Positions 405 through 9,496 of a stretch of 64,000 bases of DNA are shown here, piece after piece. The position numbers and the translations under genes were made by a program. How positions within the stretch are numbered: the stretch's first letter is position 1; each line of letters opens with the position of its first letter. The notes under the pieces are model-generated. The model worked only from the letters and a program-made list of their open reading frames with translations, did not search any database and had not been told where the DNA came from. The stretch covers positions 25 through 64,024 of the forward strand of contig URLV01000005.1 of assembly GCA_900548725.1 (NCBI GenBank), written 5' to 3'. The stretch comes from an uncultured Mycoplasmatota bacterium. GTDB lineage: Bacteria; Bacillota_I; Bacilli_A; RF39; UBA660.

Positions 405-480
405 TGGTGACCCATATGGGGTTCGAACCCATGAATGTAGCCTTGAGAGGGCTATGTGTTAACCATTTCACCAATGGGCC
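405..480 (-). tRNA. tRNA-Glu (anticodon CUC)
   Basis: 76-nt cloverleaf. Acceptor GGCCCAU pairs with AUGGGUC. D arm is GUG/CAC. Anticodon stem is UAGCC/GGCUA with loop CUCUCAA (anticodon CUC). T arm is AUGGG-UUCGAAC-CCCAU. The CCA end is encoded. Ends resemble Firmicute tRNA-Glu (GGCCC...GGGUCACCA). Confidence 0.9.
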
Positions 481-4149: not shown

Positions 4150-5682
4150 TTAGAAATTTACAACTAATATACCATCTATTATTTTTATTGAATCTTTTTC
4201 TGGATAAGATTTCATATTGTTATATTCTTTACTACCTTTTATCTTATCACGTTCTTCATCTGTTGCTCTATTTAGATATACGCCAAATTCATTATTTATC
4301 ATTGTAAATATTTTTTTATCATTATTATAAGTGTATAAATCTGCATATCCGATATATTTCCCACCCCATAATGATTGGTCAAATGTTATATTATCATTTG
4401 TGTTTGGTAATGTATTTAACTCTTTATAAAAATTGCTATTTGATTCTCCTTTGAATATAATTGGTATTCCATAATAATATCCTTCTGTACTTTCTATTTT
4501 ATTTAATAAACGATTATTAAAGTTTTCTGTATATTTATAATATGTTTCTTGTTTGAAATAATATTTATTTGTTGTTATAAAATTCATAATACCTATCATT
4601 ATTATTAAAATTGTTGTTATTATATTTAAGTATTTTGGTTTTGTTTTATCTATTAAAAGTATTATTAGCAAATATAATGATGAGAAACTATATATTTGTA
4701 GTGATGTTAAGTCTGCTTTATATGCCATAAAATCTACTATATTAAATGTTAATGGTATTAAAATAATTAATATTGTAAATATTATTATGTTTGTTTTGTT
4801 TTTATATATATTTTCTTTTTTAATTTTATTTATTAGTAAAATAAATGTTAACATTATCGTTAAAATTCTTATTATACTTTCGAATATTGAAACTCTAAAG
4901 TATGATTTTCCTATAAAGTATCCTATAAAATGTTTATATGTTCTAAATATTAATTTTGGCCATTCACTTATTGGAGGAATTCCCATACTATTTGCACCTT
5001 TATAGTTTGATAAAGATGTTTTGTTTATTAATAAAAGTATTTTCAATATAATAAAGTATAGTATGATTCCAATAATTCCCATTATAAATAATTTTATAAT
5101 ATCTTTAAATATATCTTTTTCTTTTTTCTTATCAAGTATTTCTTTTATTATAAAAATTATTATAAGAGATACTGATACTGCGATGTATGATTGGTAATTA
5201 CCAAGTGATAATGCGATGCATAAACTTCCTGGTATGAAACCATATTTCCATTTTGTACTTAGCCATACTGCAAGTACAGCTAATAGTAAGGAAGTCATAT
5301 AGATTTCTACCATAAATAAATAACTAAATGATAGTGCTAATGAAGGAAATGTTGATATTATTAATGAAACTAAAATCATATTCCTCTTATTTTTTATTTT
5401 GAAAATATCACATATTAATAAACTAATTAATGCTAGTATTATTATAACTAATACAAAATTAATTGGTGCTGACATTAATGATGTTGTAAATAATGTTCCG
5501 TTATTCCATCTTCCACTTGTTAGTGCAAAATCTTTAAATACTAAATATGATAAGTCATCTTCGTTTGCTAGTCTTCTAGTAAAAAAATAAAAATGTGTTA
5601 AAAATGTAAATATCATACTGCTATAAATAGAATATTTATACTTGTCATATAGTTCTTGTAATTTTTTGATTATTTTTTTCAT
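4150..5682 (-). CDS. Polytopic membrane protein, GtrII/Glucos_trans_II-like extracytoplasmic glycosyltransferase candidate
   Basis: 510 aa. About a dozen hydrophobic segments are followed by a soluble C-terminal domain. NEDDLSY...SGRWNNG near the N-terminus resembles the GtrII-type family (from memory). Confidence 0.5.
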   Translation of the reverse strand: MKKIIKKLQELYDKYKYSIYSSMIFTFLTHFYFFTRRLANEDDLSYLVFKDFALTSGRWNNGTLFTTSLMSAPINFVLVIIILALISLLICDIFKIKNKRNMILVSLIISTFPSLALSFSYLFMVEIYMTSLLLAVLAVWLSTKWKYGFIPGSLCIALSLGNYQSYIAVSVSLIIIFIIKEILDKKKEKDIFKDIIKLFIMGIIGIILYFIILKILLLINKTSLSNYKGANSMGIPPISEWPKLIFRTYKHFIGYFIGKSYFRVSIFESIIRILTIMLTFILLINKIKKENIYKNKTNIIIFTILIILIPLTFNIVDFMAYKADLTSLQIYSFSSLYLLIILLIDKTKPKYLNIITTILIIMIGIMNFITTNKYYFKQETYYKYTENFNNRLLNKIESTEGYYYGIPIIFKGESNSNFYKELNTLPNTNDNITFDQSLWGGKYIGYADLYTYNNDKKIFTMINNEFGVYLNRATDEERDKIKGSKEYNNMKSYPEKDSIKIIDGILVVNF

Positions 5683-5765
5683 ATTTTTCTCATATAATTA
5701 ATCTTATAAAAATGTTAATAAATTTCTTTTATTGATTAATCCCTTTCTATTTGTATCCCTTCTTA

Positions 5766-5794
5766 AATATAATATTTTTAAATTCATGTGTCAA
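5766..5794 (-). promoter_or_regulatory. Sigma-A type promoter for the 4150-5682 operon
   Basis: Minus strand reads TTGACA (5794-5789), 17 nt, TATATT (5771-5766). It shares the core TTGACACATGA with the promoter at 6157-6185. Confidence 0.55.
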
Positions 5795-5888
5795 TATGAT
5801 TATTTATTTTTATTCATTATTATATAATTTGTTGAGTTTTGATAAGTTTTTAGAGGTTTTGTCGAAACACTTTATTTATATTTAAAAG

Positions 5889-5897
5889 TGATATAGT
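5889..5897 (+). promoter_or_regulatory. Extended -10 promoter for the small-ORF transcript
   Basis: Plus strand reads gTGaTATAGT. The -35 at 17-nt spacing (ACTTTA) is weak. Confidence 0.35.
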
Positions 5898-5976
5898 ATA
5901 ACTAATCGAGCATTCGTGTTGGTGTTTACCTCACTAACTGAGATTCTTTTTGAATTTGTAGGAAGTAGGTGGTAAT

Positions 5977-6051
5977 ATGTTCAAAAATTTGGAAAAATTA
6001 TTGAATAGAATTATTATTATTTTAATGATAATCTTTTTAGATAAAGAATAG
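5977..6051 (+). CDS. 24-codon small ORF, candidate type I toxin peptide
   Basis: ATG 5977 is preceded by SD AGGTGGT (5967-5973). It encodes MFKNLEKLLNRIIIILMIIFLDKE and stops at TAG 6049-6051. It is below the ORF-track length cut-off and convergent with the sRNA at 6062-6150. Confidence 0.35.
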   Translation: MFKNLEKLLNRIIIILMIIFLDKE

Positions 6052-6061
6052 TTTATATATA

Positions 6062-6150
6062 AAATAAAAAGACATCAGCCAACTCAGTTAGGGCCGATGT
6101 TTATCCAACCAGGGTAGACATTCAACTTTCAGGGGGTTGAATGCTCACCT
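6062..6150 (-). ncRNA. Candidate ~89-nt small RNA with its own promoter and terminator (putative antitoxin / antisense RNA)
   Basis: The predicted RNA is AGGUGAGCAUUCAACCCCCUGAAAGUUGAAUGUCUACCCUGGUUGGAUAAACAUCGGCCCUAACUGAGUUGGCUGAUGUCUUUUUAUUUU. The 5' hairpin is GCAUUCAAC/GUUGAAUGU. The terminator stem is ACAUCGGCC/GGCUGAUGU followed by a U-run. Its G-U pair would be an A-C mismatch on the plus strand. There is no ORF. Confidence 0.5.
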
Positions 6151-6156
6151 AATTAA

Positions 6157-6185
6157 ATAATATCATTTGGTATATCATGTGTCAA
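6157..6185 (-). promoter_or_regulatory. Near-consensus sigma-A promoter of the candidate sRNA
   Basis: Minus strand reads TTGACA (6185-6180), 17 nt, TATTAT (6162-6157). An A9 tract lies just upstream (6189-6197), UP-element-like. Confidence 0.6.
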
Positions 6186-6197
6186 ATGTTTTTTTTT
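6164..6197 (+). terminator. Candidate plus-strand terminator of the small-ORF mRNA
   Basis: CATTTGG (6164-6170), 11-nt loop, TCAAATG (6182-6188), followed by T9 (6189-6197). The stem is weak and AT-rich but the U-tract is long. Confidence 0.35.
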
Positions 6198-6213
6198 CAT
6201 ATTTTCTTCATAA

Positions 6214-6248
6214 CTAAAAAATGTTGATAAGTTATTTGTTATCAACAT
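6214..6248 (-). terminator. Intrinsic terminator of the 1080-aa fusion gene
   Basis: ATGTTGATAA (6221-6230) and TTATCAACAT (6239-6248) form a 10-bp stem enclosing the stop codon. T5 follows on the minus strand (6220-6216). Confidence 0.55.
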
Positions 6249-9200
6249 TTCTGTTTATTTTTTCTTTTAATATTACTATTAAATATTTTATATTATGTTT
6301 TATAAATCTTGTTATTCTTTTTGGTTCACTTGCTATTCTATATAACCATTCCAAATTCAATTTAATAAAAATTCTTGGAGCACGTTTTTTAGTGCCACTT
6401 AGCACATCAAATGAACCACCTACTCCTATAAATATTCCTTTTTTGAAATCATTTATATGTTTATTAATTAATTTTTCTTGAAGAGGTATTCCTAATGCTA
6501 ACATGACTATATCAGGATTAGTTGTTTTAATATAATTCATTACTCCATCTTTATCCTTTATATAACCATTTGTTCCGCCAACTAGATTTATGTTTGGATA
6601 TTTTGTACTTATAGCATTAGTTAGTTTATCCATTACATCTTCGCTAGCACCAAATAAATATACTTTATATTTATTTTCATTCGCTAATGTTAATAAATGT
6701 TCTGCTAAATCTACTCCTGTTATTCTTTCTTTTATATTATATCCTAATAAGTTGCTTGTTTTAACTATACTTATTCCATCTGGTACTATTAAATTATTTT
6801 TATTATAAAGCATATCTGATATTTCAGAATCTTTTCTAGATAGCATATATGTTTCTGGATTAGCCGTTATAATAAATTCTTTTTCTTTATTTTTTAATTT
6901 ATTTTCAATTAAGTTATAACATTCTTTTTTATTATTTATATATAAATTAGTATAAATATTATTATGACTTATATTTTTAAAGAAATTTATATTTTCTTCT
7001 TTTATTAAATCGTAATCATATTGTTTAGATATTGATAAAGATTTTATTTGATATTCTTTTCTTACTTTTTCATCATTTATTAGATTTTTTAATTCTTTAA
7101 TCATTTCTTTTTCATTTCTATTTTTTATCAAAATACCATTTTCTTTAATTATTTCTTTTGCTCCTAATGCACTATCATATGCTATAAGTGGTAATCCATG
7201 GCTAGCAGCTTCTAAAAGTACTAATCCAAAAGATTCTTCTATTGATGTCATTATATATATAGATGATTCTTTGTAAAGCTTATTTAATTCTTCTGTATTT
7301 TTAAATCCTAATAATTTAATATTATCTTCCATATTTAATTCTTTTATAAGATTATTTAAATTATCAAACTCACTTCCAGTACCTACTATTGATAAAGTCC
7401 ATTCTTTGTTATCTAATTTATTAAATAATTTTATTAAATCATCATAACCTTTTACTTTTTCTAATCTTCCTACTGATATTATGTTTTTATTTTTTAGATT
7501 AGATAATTTATTATCAGTTTCTATTGGCATGTTATTTGTTATTATTTTATATCTATATTCTGTAAATAATTCTTTATAGTAATTAGTTAAGTAATTGCTA
7601 CTTGGCATTAAATAGTCAACACTTTTTAATATATAATGTAATTTATTTAAATATTTTGTATTATTGTTATGATAAATATGTTCTTCTGCTATTTTAATAT
7701 TATTATATTCATTATTTCTTATTAATTTTTCTGTAAAATCTATTCTAGTAGATATAATAATTTCACTATTACAATTTATCATTGATTTAGTAATTAGTGT
7801 ATGTTTTAAATAAAGTACTTTTATACTATATATACCTTGTTTTATTATGTTGATTATATTTTTAGAATGTAATGCTTCTTTTAATTCTTTTCTATTTGGT
7901 TTTATATTAGTAGTTAAATATTTAATTTTTACATTATCATTTAATTTAAAATCTGGTTTATCTTTTAATTTATACAAACTTATTATTTCTACATCATTTA
8001 TTTCACTTAATATATTTGCTTTAGTACAAATATTTTTTTCTACTCCTCCATAATTTAAATGTAGAGCGTATATTGAAACTTTATTTTTTTTGATTTTATT
8101 ATCTTTTTTATTTAATAAGTTTATTTCATTCATAGCAGGTAATAAATACATAACTATATATATAGATACAGCAGGAGCGCATAATGTATGACCACTTATA
8201 CAAGATATACTTAATAATAATCCTATCATTAATGTATAAAATACTGTATTTATATTTAATTCTCTAGATTGAATTATTTTTATTAAATAGTAAATGAAAG
8301 GTAGTAAAACTAATATTAGTGCAATAAGTCCTGAATGAAAAAATATATCTAATATATCTATTTCTATAAGTTTTGTTATTGCATAATGTTTTATTTCTAT
8401 TGTATTTGAATATCCTATTCCTAACAATAATACTTTTGCATTAAAATGTTTCGAATATATTTCATATGTTAATCTAAAATATATATCTCTTGAAGATAAC
8501 ATTATTCTTCCATATTTTTTTATTTGTTTTACTAATTTGGAATCATTGCTTAACTTGTCTTCTTTTTCTATTTCTTTTCTTATTCTTCCATATTCTTCCT
8601 CTAGAAAACGTTCGTTTTTTTCTTGTTCAGTTACTGGATCTTTTCTTGGAGGCTCTGGTTTTACTTTAACATTTTTTAATTTTTTTGGATCTTTTGGTAT
8701 ATTATATTTTACATTATTAAGTGTACTACTATTTAATATTAAAAGTATAATACCTAAAAGTATAAATCCTATTTTTAAAGTTGTTATTTTCTTTTTCTTA
8801 ATTAATGACAATACTAATATAATTGTTGTTGTAATTATTATTCCTAATACTGAAACTTTAGTTCCTAAAGAGAATATCATTAAAATCATAAATATTATTA
8901 GAACTATATTAAATTTACTTTTATTAATTTTTGTTAATAAAAATGGGTATAGTAGTGTTAAAATAACTGATATTTCATTTGCTGAATTAAACCATCCTGA
9001 ACTTCCTTTATAACCTTTGTAATTATAAGTACTAAATCCTGTATTTGTAATTAACGGTAAAAATAATAGTATTCCATATGTTATAAAATTTATTATTAGT
9101 ATTTTGATTATTTTTTCTTTATCAAATTTATGTTCATCAAAAAAGCATAATAAGCAAACTAATAATATTGGAAAATACATTGTTTTAAACATATATATTG

Positions 9201-9474
9201 ATTCTTTTATAAACATAGACATTGTTAGATATTTTATTTTTGATAAAATATATGCTAGCATGTAAATGAATATTAAAAGTATATATATTAAACCCTTCTT
9301 TTTATATTTCGATGTGGAAAAGATTAGAGTTATTAACATTATTGCTAGAAATAGTAATTTTACGATTACTCCTATACTTACTGTAAGATTAAATAATCTT
9401 GTTGATATAGATGTTAGTAAATCTATAATTGGTAATAATATTAAAAATATATATAATTTTTTGTTGTTGCTCAT
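6232..9474 (-). CDS. Triple-domain protein: Wzy/O-antigen-ligase-like polytopic domain + GT4 glycosyltransferase + WecG/TagA (GT26) N-acetylmannosaminyltransferase
   Basis: aa 1-~465 are many TM helices with a large charged loop. aa ~470-850 are GT-B/GT4 (EESFGLVLLEAASHGLPLIAYDS). aa ~860-1083 match TagA/WecG (VPDGISIV, GVGGSFDVLSGTKKRAPRIFIKLNLEWLYRIASEPKRITRF). Start moved to ATG 9474 (SD AGGTAGGTG) from GTG 9483. Confidence 0.8.
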   Translation of the reverse strand: MSNNKKLYIFLILLPIIDLLTSISTRLFNLTVSIGVIVKLLFLAIMLITLIFSTSKYKKKGLIYILLIFIYMLAYILSKIKYLTMSMFIKESIYMFKTMYFPILLVCLLCFFDEHKFDKEKIIKILIINFITYGILLFLPLITNTGFSTYNYKGYKGSSGWFNSANEISVILTLLYPFLLTKINKSKFNIVLIIFMILMIFSLGTKVSVLGIIITTTIILVLSLIKKKKITTLKIGFILLGIILLILNSSTLNNVKYNIPKDPKKLKNVKVKPEPPRKDPVTEQEKNERFLEEEYGRIRKEIEKEDKLSNDSKLVKQIKKYGRIMLSSRDIYFRLTYEIYSKHFNAKVLLLGIGYSNTIEIKHYAITKLIEIDILDIFFHSGLIALILVLLPFIYYLIKIIQSRELNINTVFYTLMIGLLLSISCISGHTLCAPAVSIYIVMYLLPAMNEINLLNKKDNKIKKNKVSIYALHLNYGGVEKNICTKANILSEINDVEIISLYKLKDKPDFKLNDNVKIKYLTTNIKPNRKELKEALHSKNIINIIKQGIYSIKVLYLKHTLITKSMINCNSEIIISTRIDFTEKLIRNNEYNNIKIAEEHIYHNNNTKYLNKLHYILKSVDYLMPSSNYLTNYYKELFTEYRYKIITNNMPIETDNKLSNLKNKNIISVGRLEKVKGYDDLIKLFNKLDNKEWTLSIVGTGSEFDNLNNLIKELNMEDNIKLLGFKNTEELNKLYKESSIYIMTSIEESFGLVLLEAASHGLPLIAYDSALGAKEIIKENGILIKNRNEKEMIKELKNLINDEKVRKEYQIKSLSISKQYDYDLIKEENINFFKNISHNNIYTNLYINNKKECYNLIENKLKNKEKEFIITANPETYMLSRKDSEISDMLYNKNNLIVPDGISIVKTSNLLGYNIKERITGVDLAEHLLTLANENKYKVYLFGASEDVMDKLTNAISTKYPNINLVGGTNGYIKDKDGVMNYIKTTNPDIVMLALGIPLQEKLINKHINDFKKGIFIGVGGSFDVLSGTKKRAPRIFIKLNLEWLYRIASEPKRITRFIKHNIKYLIVILKEKINRNVDNK

Positions 9475-9496
9475 AAAGTACACCTACCTATAAATC

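Follow-up and report, generated by a model that had tools for sequence, protein, structure and literature searches.

The 549-nt intergenic region upstream of GtrII in the window (by which we mean the whole 64,000-nt stretch of DNA analysed, with 22.6% GC) contains a ~350-nt cassette at positions 5849–6197, in which two putative transcription units face each other. On the plus strand, a conserved region (5849–5897) ending in the -10-like sequence TATAGT (5892–5897) is followed by a predicted mRNA leader (5903–5976), a 24-codon small open reading frame (sORF, 5977–6051) encoding MFKNLEKLLNRIIIILMIIFLDKE, and a predicted 3' UTR (6052–6163). A Shine-Dalgarno (SD) sequence, AGGTGGT (5967–5973, with the core AGGTGG at 5967–5972), lies 3–4 nt upstream of the ATG. 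On the minus strand, a promoter (6157–6185; TTGACA-17-TGaTATTAT, with an A-tract before it and a score of 11/12 with the TG) would drive a ~89-nt small RNA (sRNA, 6062–6150) that lacks an ORF; its gene starts 11 nt past the sORF stop and lies entirely within the 3' UTR of the sORF mRNA, which is fully complementary to it. The only plus-strand terminator candidate (6164–6197) stands beyond the sRNA gene. All of the features listed in the initial annotation of this DNA were found where it had placed them, including TGATATAGT at 5889–5897, the SD, the ORF, the sRNA promoter, the hairpins, the U-tails and an inverted repeat (5934–5942 and 6083–6091). Its core reading, an sORF paired with a 3'-overlapping cis-antisense sRNA, is strengthened by the comparisons described below; the type I toxin-antitoxin (TA) label that it attached is putative.

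Evidence from this single sequence is weak because promoter-like sites are not enriched in the window (12 found against 10.5 expected) and about 50% of random ATG-initiated ORFs of 16–70 aa at its GC content pass the hydrophobic-stretch test for type I toxins. Comparison among related sequences shows that the ensemble is conserved and constrained. The cassette recurs in ~35 contigs from related gut "uncultured Bacilli", a very AT-rich lineage found mainly in non-industrialised populations. Related contigs carry 1–3 tandem copies in the spacer upstream of GtrII, with a repeat period of ~412 nt, and a diverged form is found at a second locus, the recA-rny spacer; homology between the cassettes of the two loci starts at position 5849. 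The sRNA, sORF and leader recur as one unit at both loci, with two exceptions, each at a contig end: in variant L051 the sORF and leader are intact and the promoter, 5' hairpin and linker of the sRNA are gone, and in variant L052 the sORF is intact and the entire sRNA is replaced by other sequence.

The cassette had been described as sitting between two operons of the glycopolymer locus; the more distant relatives show that its site is no natural gap. GtrII relatives with 63–64% and 49% identity have contiguous flanking genes and no cassette, and RNase Y lineages with 96% and 85% identity have no cassette at recA-rny, one of them retaining an empty spacer of 113 nt. The absence of the cassette from sister lineages at both sites marks it as an autonomous insertion; as judged from these sequences it moves and duplicates as one unit, and its link to the glycopolymer locus is incidental. 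Terminal inverted repeats are absent at its homology boundaries, and a ~69-nt direct repeat with 75% identity flanks it (6259–6191 and 5733–5673). This repeat includes the terminator hairpin (6217–6246, minus strand) of the upstream gene for a 1083-aa glycosyltransferase fusion, and that hairpin marks the outer edge of the inserted region. On the other side, the GtrII promoter (5766–5794, minus strand; TTGACA-17-TATATT) is homologous to the sRNA promoter, with TTGACACATGA in common, and acts as a partial extra repeat unit. IS30-like remnants are found at the cassette, and assemblies break there. We considered whether the cassette is a cis-regulatory leader or riboswitch for GtrII and rejected this, as GtrII, which has a promoter of its own, lies 380 nt beyond the point where the RNA terminates, and the cassette is also present upstream of rny. 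An Ile-rich leader-peptide attenuator was likewise ruled out; at both loci the next gene on the plus-strand side is convergent and nothing lies downstream.

No further copy was found in the 64-kb window by tblastn with the peptide or with a covariance model of the sRNA (R1), which matched only this site. Viral contigs scanned with three sequence patterns gave no match to the cassette, and BLAST against plasmids and phages gave only a 36-nt AT-rich chance match. A metagenome scan using a pattern built from two sRNA loops yielded 0 matches, and one using a degenerate pattern for the peptide recovered a diverged copy, L026, which scores 74 bits with R1.

The sORF looks coding from its pattern of substitution. 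It is intact at 24 codons in all but one of the ~35 copies, the exception having a C-terminal frameshift, and 17 substitution events are distributed 9/1/7 over codon positions 1, 2 and 3 (P = 0.0096). None of the 17 breaks the ORF (P ~0.05). The start switches from ATG to GTG and the stop from TAG to TAA among copies, and the recA-rny form has accumulated 9 nucleotide changes within the last 8 codons with both frame and length retained. The first 16 codons are near-invariant even at synonymous sites, so part of the conservation acts on the RNA or stems from recent spread. Gene callers skip the sORF, and such systems are unannotated in this lineage.

The N-terminal half of the predicted peptide is amphipathic; its core is rich in Ile and Leu, and its tail is charged. 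Using the operational criteria for new type I toxins of Fozo et al. 2010 (PMC2887945), under which an ORF of 16–70 aa should have at least 10 of 15 consecutive residues drawn from I, V, L, F, C, M and A, residues 8–22 contain 12 hydrophobic residues of 15 (11 of 15 in the recA-rny form). The C-terminus is polar (DKE here; NKN or NKD in the other lineage), and the locus stands apart from the flanking genes. The same criteria look for tandem repetition within a single intergenic region, which the spacer upstream of GtrII shows. A hydrophobic stretch together with a polar C-terminus occurs in 13 of the 325 small ORFs of the window, and this sORF is the only one of them that also has an SD. The uninterrupted hydrophobic run is 10 residues, which is short for a membrane-spanning toxin, and the recA-rny form carries Arg or Cys inside the core (ILRLL, ILCLL). 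Searches of Pfam-A and NCBIfam at E values up to 10 assigned the peptide to no family, with power limited by its 24-aa length, and by sequence models it does not belong to the TxpA/BsrG, Fst/Ldr, Ibs, Hok or other named toxin families. A full-text literature search for the peptide sequence found no occurrence.

The minus-strand RNA is probably real, as judged from sequence conservation: it combines a conserved consensus promoter, a structured RNA without an ORF and a terminator on that strand, all opposite the sORF transcript. Every copy in the two lineages retains both promoter hexamers, save for one copy altered in the -35 and another altered in the -10 (TATCAT), and the spacer between them varies at six or more positions. 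The predicted fold (-27.4 kcal/mol, z = -3.1) comprises an outer helix and 5' hairpin (6149–6113), with arms GCAUUCAAC (6144–6136) and GUUGAAUGU (6126–6118) and a C5 apical loop, then a single-stranded linker, and a terminator hairpin (6100–6072), with arms ACAUCGGCC (6100–6092) and GGCUGAUGU (6080–6072), followed by CU5AU4. Between 96.7% and 100% of cells in the stems are paired, with 96.7% across 13 distinct variants. Nine stem substitutions were identified, all of them transitions, and all nine keep pairing on the minus strand only; examples are a U-A/U.G/C-G series and the change of an A.C mismatch to A-U. G.U pairs account for 54 of 271 stem cells and would be A.C mismatches on the plus strand, in agreement with the strand-specific fold proposed initially. 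Divergence is too low (column identity 84–95%) for the shuffle controls on covariation to be informative: between 387 and 500 of 500 shuffles reach the observed value. No pair is strictly changed on both sides when set against the commonest one. We therefore give no covariation P-value and base the argument on which way the substitutions go and on their strand-specificity.

Among the unpaired parts of the sRNA, the terminator loop CCCUAACUGAGUU is invariant in both lineages and the most conserved. Three C-runs are essentially invariant in both as well, namely the C5 apical loop, the CCC that opens the linker and the CCC of the terminator loop. The 6-nt core of the linker (6109–6104) is hypervariable (Fisher P = 1.5e-4), and the linker differs between tandem neighbours in 6 of 7 arrays. 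At the gathering level the only Rfam match in the window is a tRNA, and the sRNA belongs to no riboswitch or leader family; with a permissive search the best match is NsiR1 at 20.6 bits against a gathering threshold of 39 (E = 0.16), mainly to the terminator hairpin and U-tail, and the rest are weaker. With Pfam and NCBIfam also giving no match, the description of the module as unassigned to any family stands. Pairing in trans of the sRNA with the leader and ribosome-binding site of the sORF was considered and rejected, its duplex energy being marginal (3.8% of shuffles are as good) and the structure implausible.

The sORF promoter is of a different character from that of the sRNA. It had been described as an extended -10 promoter, and the -10 site is present; the TG at 5889–5890 is confined to this copy, with TA or TT elsewhere, and no -35 is recognisable. 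Within the conserved upstream region ATATAGTATAAC is invariant in all copies, and the segment 5886–5915 is a 30-nt inverted copy, with 73% identity, of the -10 and start region of the sRNA (6139–6168). A LexA (Cheo) box in the promoter-upstream region or in the B-type leader (GAACGTTC) was rejected by eye because the spacing does not fit.

The leader that follows is predicted to sequester both the SD and the start codon. In a consensus fold of 14 distinct leaders, in which 98.4% of cells are paired, GAGCAU (5908–5913) pairs with the start codon region AUGUUC (5977–5982), and the anti-SD sequence UUACCUCACU (5926–5935) pairs with AGUAGGUGG (5964–5972). Both helices are kept in all 14 variants; the one at the start codon is 100% paired, even where ATG has become GTG and in the GAACGU variant, and mean pairwise divergence of the leader is 3.4%, compared with 17–19% in the flanks.

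The leader also carries copies of two segments of the sRNA. The sequence CUAACUGAG (5934–5942) is the same as that of the sRNA terminator loop, and GAGCAUUC (5908–5915) is identical to the 5' segment of the sRNA; the two RNAs have identical and not complementary 5' segments because the repeats are inverted. The 3' UTR correspondingly contains GAAUGCUC (6139–6146) and CUCAGUUAG (6083–6091), both complementary to the leader of the same mRNA. A stronger 5'-3' complementarity, between GAGCAUUC and GAAUGCUC, was missed by the initial annotation, which had proposed a 5'-3' lock made of a 9-nt helix and a GUUGG/CCAAC helix. The complementarity of the 9-nt helix is present, in full in 15 of 17 copies; the GUUGG/CCAAC helix is unsupported because 6104–6109 is hypervariable and its partner at 5918–5922 is invariant. 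Of 16 copies, 12 have the 8-mer fully complementary, and one compensatory change, from A-U to G-C, is seen; in the minimum free energy fold of 5903–6197 (z = -3.8) the 5' end (5908–5916) pairs with 6138–6146. Covariation for a 5'-3' interaction within the sORF mRNA is mixed. The mRNA would end at the plus-strand terminator candidate, an 11-bp hairpin (6164–6188) rich in A/U and G.U pairs and followed by U9, which overlaps the sRNA promoter. A generic terminator scan missed it because it has fewer than three G-C pairs. Its arms are conserved, with a G.U to A-U change in the recA-rny lineage, and its loop, which is the promoter spacer, varies.

This arrangement resembles the Bacillus subtilis systems bsrG/SR4 and txpA/RatA (and also bsrE/SR5 and yonT/SR6), in which transcription is convergent and overlap of the RNAs is confined to the 3' end of the mRNA. 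The sRNA there, ~90–200 nt long, has a strong promoter and a terminator of its own, and the leader partly sequesters the toxin SD. In bsrG/SR4 first contact is made by the SR4 terminator loop, and 3'-end binding extends sequestration of the bsrG SD (PMC3834814). The cassette departs from these systems in that the peptide has no sequence similarity and no Pfam or NCBIfam match and is 24 aa long, compared with 38 for BsrG and 59 for TxpA; the sRNA gene lies wholly inside the 3' UTR and ends short of the ORF; the leader carries its copies of two sRNA segments; and the cassettes form chromosomal intergenic tandem arrays outside any prophage or skin-like element. A very small hydrophobic peptide and duplication of whole toxin-plus-sRNA units within one intergenic region are features of Escherichia coli ibs/sib (Ibs is 18–19 aa; ldr/rdl and zor/orz are similar). 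Sib paralogues differ in short recognition domains that give cognate-pair specificity (PMC2943612, PMC2887945), and the copy-specific hypervariable linker resembles these domains. However, a Sib RNA is antisense to the whole of the ibs ORF and its translation initiation region, whereas overlap in the cassette is confined to the 3' UTR; the hosts are Proteobacteria in one case and low-GC Bacilli in the other, and the sequences show no similarity.

Enterococcus faecalis par (fst/RNA II), of the Fst/Ldr superfamily, is also a convergent Firmicute system, with a small peptide having a charged C-terminal tail, two RNAs that carry common short repeated segments, and a terminator loop for first contact. 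In par, however, direct DNA repeats give complementary 5' ends and one bidirectional terminator is common to both genes, whereas the cassette has inverted repeats, a separate terminator for each gene (6100–6061 on the minus strand, 6164–6197 on the plus strand) and complementarity between the sRNA and the 3' UTR; no match of the peptide to the Fst family was found in Pfam or NCBIfam. The predicted closure of the full-length mRNA by pairing of its 5' end (5908–5916) with its 3' end (6138–6146) recalls hok/sok and Helicobacter aapA1/IsoA1. There the antitoxin binds the 5' region, and long-distance pairing blocks translation as well as binding of the antitoxin until trimming of the 3' end; in the cassette, by contrast, leader and sRNA would be competitors for one set of sites in the 3' UTR. 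Lastly, unpaired C-runs in hairpin loops that are conserved across copies are shared with Firmicute sRNAs of the RsaE/RoxS type, from which the cassette sRNA differs in having no Rfam match, in being encoded in cis opposite the transcript of a conserved sORF, and in the hypervariability of its seed-like linker.

Three other explanations need to be weighed. One is that the peptide is a non-toxic small protein, such as a membrane-associated or amphipathic regulator, that is tuned by a cis-antisense RNA, making this an ordinary sORF/antisense RNA pair. The coding signature and antisense architecture fit such a pair as well as they fit a TA system, the short hydrophobic core tolerates Arg or Cys, and retention of the sORF in L051 and L052 without a cognate sRNA is easier to accommodate if the peptide is harmless. 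We nonetheless consider this unlikely, as several traits seen here are characteristic of selfish TA-like cassettes and difficult to account for in a housekeeping small protein: tandem amplification accompanied by diversified recognition linkers, presence/absence polymorphism between sister lineages, occurrence at two unrelated loci, and double sequestration of the SD and AUG together with a much stronger antisense promoter. A second explanation, which we think quite unlikely, is that the sRNA acts mainly in trans through C-rich loops, as RsaE/RoxS do, on G-rich ribosome-binding sites elsewhere, with the sORF overlap being secondary. Its promoter is strong, and a purely cis-antisense function would not need C-rich loops; the C5 loop and CCC runs are essentially invariant in both lineages. 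The RNA falls in no Rfam family, RsaE included, though, and it always travels with the sORF and leader as one unit. A conserved trans target is also argued against by the linker, the obvious seed, because it is hypervariable and copy-specific, and the duplex of the sRNA with the sORF leader and initiation region, implausible in structure, does only weakly better than shuffled sequences.

It is more improbable still that the cassette is a non-coding repetitive element of intergenic regions (a terminator-promoter cassette or MITE-like element) in which both the ORF and the apparent sRNA are incidental products of AT-rich sequence and bidirectional hairpins. Tandem copies at two loci, the flanking direct repeat, the attraction of IS30-like remnants, the assembly breaks, the co-option of its promoter for GtrII, and the frequency of chance hydrophobic ORFs in this genome could all be accounted for in this way. 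Against it, substitutions avoid codon position 2, the start, stop and length persist through the nine changes in the last eight codons, the SD is at the right distance from the start, the stems are preserved strand-specifically, and the homology boundaries have no terminal inverted repeats.

The reading that we prefer, and hold with middling confidence, is that the cassette is a new type I TA-like module of the 3'-overlapping kind that belongs to no assigned family. The tandem copies and the two unrelated genome sites suggest that it is probably a new family of RNA-controlled TA systems. A weak, -10-only promoter would drive a ~290-nt plus-strand mRNA for the 24-aa peptide, and a strong consensus promoter on the opposite strand would drive the structured ~89-nt sRNA. 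If the module works as bsrG/SR4 and txpA/RatA do, the sRNA would be abundant and would pair with the mRNA 3' UTR, making first contact through the invariant terminator loop, the single-stranded linker, or both. The resulting ~89-bp duplex could lead to mRNA decay of the RNase III type, and pairing may also favour the leader fold that hides the SD (5964–5972) and AUG (5977–5982). The 6-nt hypervariable linker might then serve as a separate recognition address for each tandem copy, in the manner of Sib/Ibs.

A more elaborate form of this TA reading, which we put forward as a very doubtful proposal, is a new type I family with antitoxin mimicry. As the leader carries copies of two sRNA segments, GAGCAUUC and CUAACUGAG, it would compete with the sRNA for the same two sites in the 3' UTR. 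A free 3' UTR would capture the leader, release the SD and AUG and turn translation on; with the sRNA on the 3' UTR, the leader would refold into its doubly sequestered form, translation would be off and the duplex would be degraded, and the hypervariable linker would give copy-specific addressing within tandem arrays.

At the level of the locus, the cassette interrupts a cell-envelope glycosylation operon, supplies a promoter for the downstream genes and breaks metagenome assemblies. Its ~35 copies form a natural series, spread over two loci and including variants without the sRNA as well as tandem arrays whose linkers have diversified, and this series offers material on the cognate specificity of cis-antisense pairs and on how binding at the 3' end acts on translation from a distance. 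If confirmed, the cassette would represent a new family of type I TA systems, whose 24-aa toxin would be among the shortest.

The window has a G+C content of 22.6% and matches metagenome contigs and MAGs named "uncultured Bacilli bacterium" from human gut cohorts. The cassette lies in a 549-nt spacer (5683–6231) between two minus-strand genes, one coding for a 510-aa GtrII-type glucosyltransferase (4150–5682) and the other for a 1083-aa fusion protein with O-antigen-ligase-like (Wzy_C-like), GT4 and WecG/TagA domains (6232–9483). The latter corresponds to three separate adjoining genes in a more distant relative (L009, 1922–5020) and is thus a lineage-specific gene fusion of the glycopolymer pathway. 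All of the elements listed in the initial annotation are present where it placed them. The sORF (5977–6051, plus strand; product MFKNLEKLLNRIIIILMIIFLDKE) is preceded by AGGTGG, and its promoter has no -35. On the minus strand, a predicted sRNA promoter, TTGACA-17-TATTAT (6185–6157; score 11/12), with TG ahead of the -10, precedes an 89-nt predicted sRNA (6150–6062) comprising an outer helix, a 9-bp hairpin with a C5 loop, a linker and a G+C-rich terminator (predicted fold -27.4 kcal/mol, z = -3.1). Support for a module from the window sequence on its own would be weak, because promoter-like sites occur at shuffle frequency (12 found against 10.5 expected, no enrichment) and half of the 325 ATG-ORFs of 16–70 aa in the window pass the hydrophobic-stretch test; 13 of these also have a polar C-terminus, and of those only the sORF has an SD too. 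The sRNA covariance model has a second match on the plus strand (6110–6205; 27.8 bits, E = 6e-5), where the hairpin 1 complement and, after it, the plus-strand terminator resemble the sRNA layout as a mirror-image architecture.

The RNA matched no known family, riboswitch and leader families included, in an Rfam search of the window at the gathering threshold, a point on which the type I toxin-antitoxin (TA) module proposed initially stands; the sole match was a tRNA gene (408–480, minus strand; 63.5 bits). A permissive search gave NsiR1 as the best match (E = 0.16), aligned chiefly through the terminator hairpin and U-tail. The peptide has no match in Pfam or NCBIfam, and the cassette is not yet described as a family.

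Equivalent spacers are present in contigs whose GtrII proteins are 86–100% identical to that of the window, and hold one to three tandem copies of a ~412-nt unit containing the sRNA promoter, sRNA, sORF and sORF promoter region. At more distant GtrII loci (63–64% and 49% identity) the glycosyltransferase genes are contiguous, and both the cassette and any large spacer are absent; the cassette has therefore been inserted in an operon and does not occupy a natural gap between two operons, as had been supposed. The GtrII promoter (5794–5766) and the sRNA promoter have TTGACACATGA in common and similar -10 regions (5766–5812 and 6157–6200, minus strand); the former behaves as a partial extra unit, and from this homology a partial cassette copy apparently drives the glucosyltransferase genes located downstream of the insertion. 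A direct repeat of ~69 nt (75% identity; 6259–6191 and 5733–5673) with a 17-nt core (15/17; 6217–6233 and 5708–5724) lies on both sides of the cassette, one repeat overlapping the upstream gene's stop and its terminator and the other just ahead of the GtrII start, and may record the event behind the insertion or duplication. Some arrays have an IS30-like HTH remnant between copies: a 131-aa ORF on the sORF strand (L021 3041–3436 and L002 2464–2930; also L023 and L024), matches HTH_38 weakly (E = 0.14), ends in a Cys-rich tail and resembles an IS30-like transposase that has been truncated. In L021 it takes the place of the copy 1 sORF promoter, and the copy 1 sORF is still intact. Many independent assemblies (L007, L019, L020, L022, L025, L051, L052) end inside the cassette or within about 200–370 nt of it, as expected for repeated sequence, which points to a higher copy number per genome than was observed.

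Scanning metagenomes with a degenerate DNA pattern for the peptide returned one contig, L026, with a diverged cassette between recA and rny. Its homology to the window runs from ~5849 to 6197 and takes in all of the proposed elements. The 24-codon sORF (MFKNLEKLLNRIIIILILRLLNKN) has nine nucleotide changes within the last eight codons, an intact frame and TAA in place of the TAG stop. L026 retains both sRNA hairpins along with the sRNA promoter hexamers, C5 loop and terminator loop (CCCUAACUGAG), and its linker differs again from those of other copies. This form was found in contigs whose RNase Y is identical or 99% identical, and lineages at 96% and 85% identity have no cassette, one of them having an empty recA–rny spacer of 113 nt. 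The cassette is mobile; a search of viral contigs, plasmids and phages found no copy. Two contig-end variants at the rny-upstream site, L051 and L052, have the sORF and leader intact and no sRNA, with homology breaking 54–68 nt from the contig ends. L051 (1–110) keeps the sORF (R19C), but of its sRNA terminator just the 3' arm and part of the loop remain, and beyond them lies another hairpin that resembles a terminator and differs from the usual one. L052 (1–60) joins a GtrII-locus-type peptide (I15V) to a recA–rny-type leader, with a different hairpin pair at the expected sRNA position. In two recA-adjacent variants (L026 4915–4925, L053 420–430) the leader 8-mer is a perfect palindrome, GAACGTTC, resembling LexA (Cheo) box half-sites without the 4-nt spacer, probably by coincidence.

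The substitution pattern indicates that the sORF evolves in a coding manner. At least 17 substitution events are needed to explain its 11 distinct alleles; they are distributed 9/1/7 over codon positions 1/2/3 (at most one at position 2, binomial P = 0.0096), and the start, frame and stop survive all of them (P about 0.05); one allele has GTG for ATG, and one of ~35 copies has a C-terminal frameshift. Pairwise divergence is lowest in the sORF and leader (2.6–3.4%), compared with 5.6% in the sRNA and 17–19% in the flanks. Codons 1–16 are close to invariant, synonymous sites included, so some of the constraint acts on the RNA or is a product of recent spread. The hydrophobic run is short, and Arg or Cys is tolerated within it.

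Stem cells of the sRNA are paired in 96.7% of cases over 13 distinct variants, and in 100% for the nine GtrII-locus variants alone. All nine stem substitutions are transitions that keep or improve pairing of the minus-strand RNA: a U-A/U.G/C-G series at one pair, G.U to G-C, G.U to A-U, an A.C mismatch to A-U, A-U to G.U at two pairs and C-G to U.G at two pairs. G.U pairs make up 54 of 271 stem cells and on the plus strand would be A.C mismatches. From these comparisons we infer that the structure is constrained on the minus strand; we claim constraint and not proven covariation, since shuffle controls, in which the observed value was reached in 387 and 426 of 500 shuffles, are uninformative at such low divergence. 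Across copies the promoter hexamers are kept and the spacer varies. The linker core (6109–6104) is variable in 5/6 columns against 9/94 elsewhere (Fisher P = 1.5e-4), and the linkers of adjoining tandem copies are unlike in 6/7 arrays.

In a consensus fold of 14 leader variants, GAGCAU (5908–5913) pairs with the start codon region AUGUUC (5977–5982) and UUACCU.ACU (5926–5935) with AGUAGGUGG (5964–5972); the start-codon helix is paired in 100%, GTG-start and GAACGU variants included. A GUUGG/CCAAC helix proposed initially is contradicted, its 3' partner being the complement of the hypervariable linker and its leader side invariant, and the proposed 9-mer complementarity CUAACUGAG/CUCAGUUAG holds at 9/9 in 15/17 copies. 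A stronger candidate 5'–3' pairing had been missed, between GAGCAUUC (5908–5915) and GAAUGCUC (6139–6146), which closes the predicted MFE structure of the whole predicted mRNA (z = -3.8) and lies in a 30-nt inverted repeat joining both promoter/start regions. Complementarity is 8/8 in 12/16 copies, with one compensatory change (A-U to G-C), and 7/8 or 6/8 in the remaining four, among them the commonest allele, L003. Since the repeats are inverted, leader and sRNA bear identical segments and would be in competition for one set of 3' UTR sites.

The cassette is real and conserved, and we favor its interpretation as a new, family-unassigned type I TA-like unit; the type I TA kind is where it most likely belongs. 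This reading is favored by its architecture, by a parallel with Ibs/Sib, and by the agreement of the locus with the operational criteria for discovering new type I toxins (PMC2887945). Like the Firmicute 3'-overlapping systems bsrG/SR4 and txpA/RatA, it combines a predicted strong antisense with a weak sense promoter, a structured sRNA within the 3' UTR and a translation start that is predicted to be doubly sequestered. The likeness extends to the invariant terminator loop of the sRNA; in bsrG/SR4 the terminator loop makes the first contact, and 3'-end binding extends SD sequestration (PMC3834814). Ibs/Sib offers the parallel of tandem amplification with a copy-specific recognition sequence (PMC2943612). 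Binding of the sRNA to the 3' UTR would lead to duplex-dependent decay of the sORF mRNA and would keep the leader in its closed fold.

Three other explanations stay alive because the hydrophobic run is so short and permissive, L051 and L052 lack the sRNA, and the sORF promoter is without a -35. The peptide may be non-toxic, a small protein whose expression the antisense RNA controls, or the sRNA may be chiefly a trans-acting C-rich regulator; that the cassette is a non-coding repeat is the least likely of these. Under the favored type I TA-like reading, "antitoxin mimicry" by the leader, through the competition described above, is possible and, if true, would be the most original aspect of the cassette.
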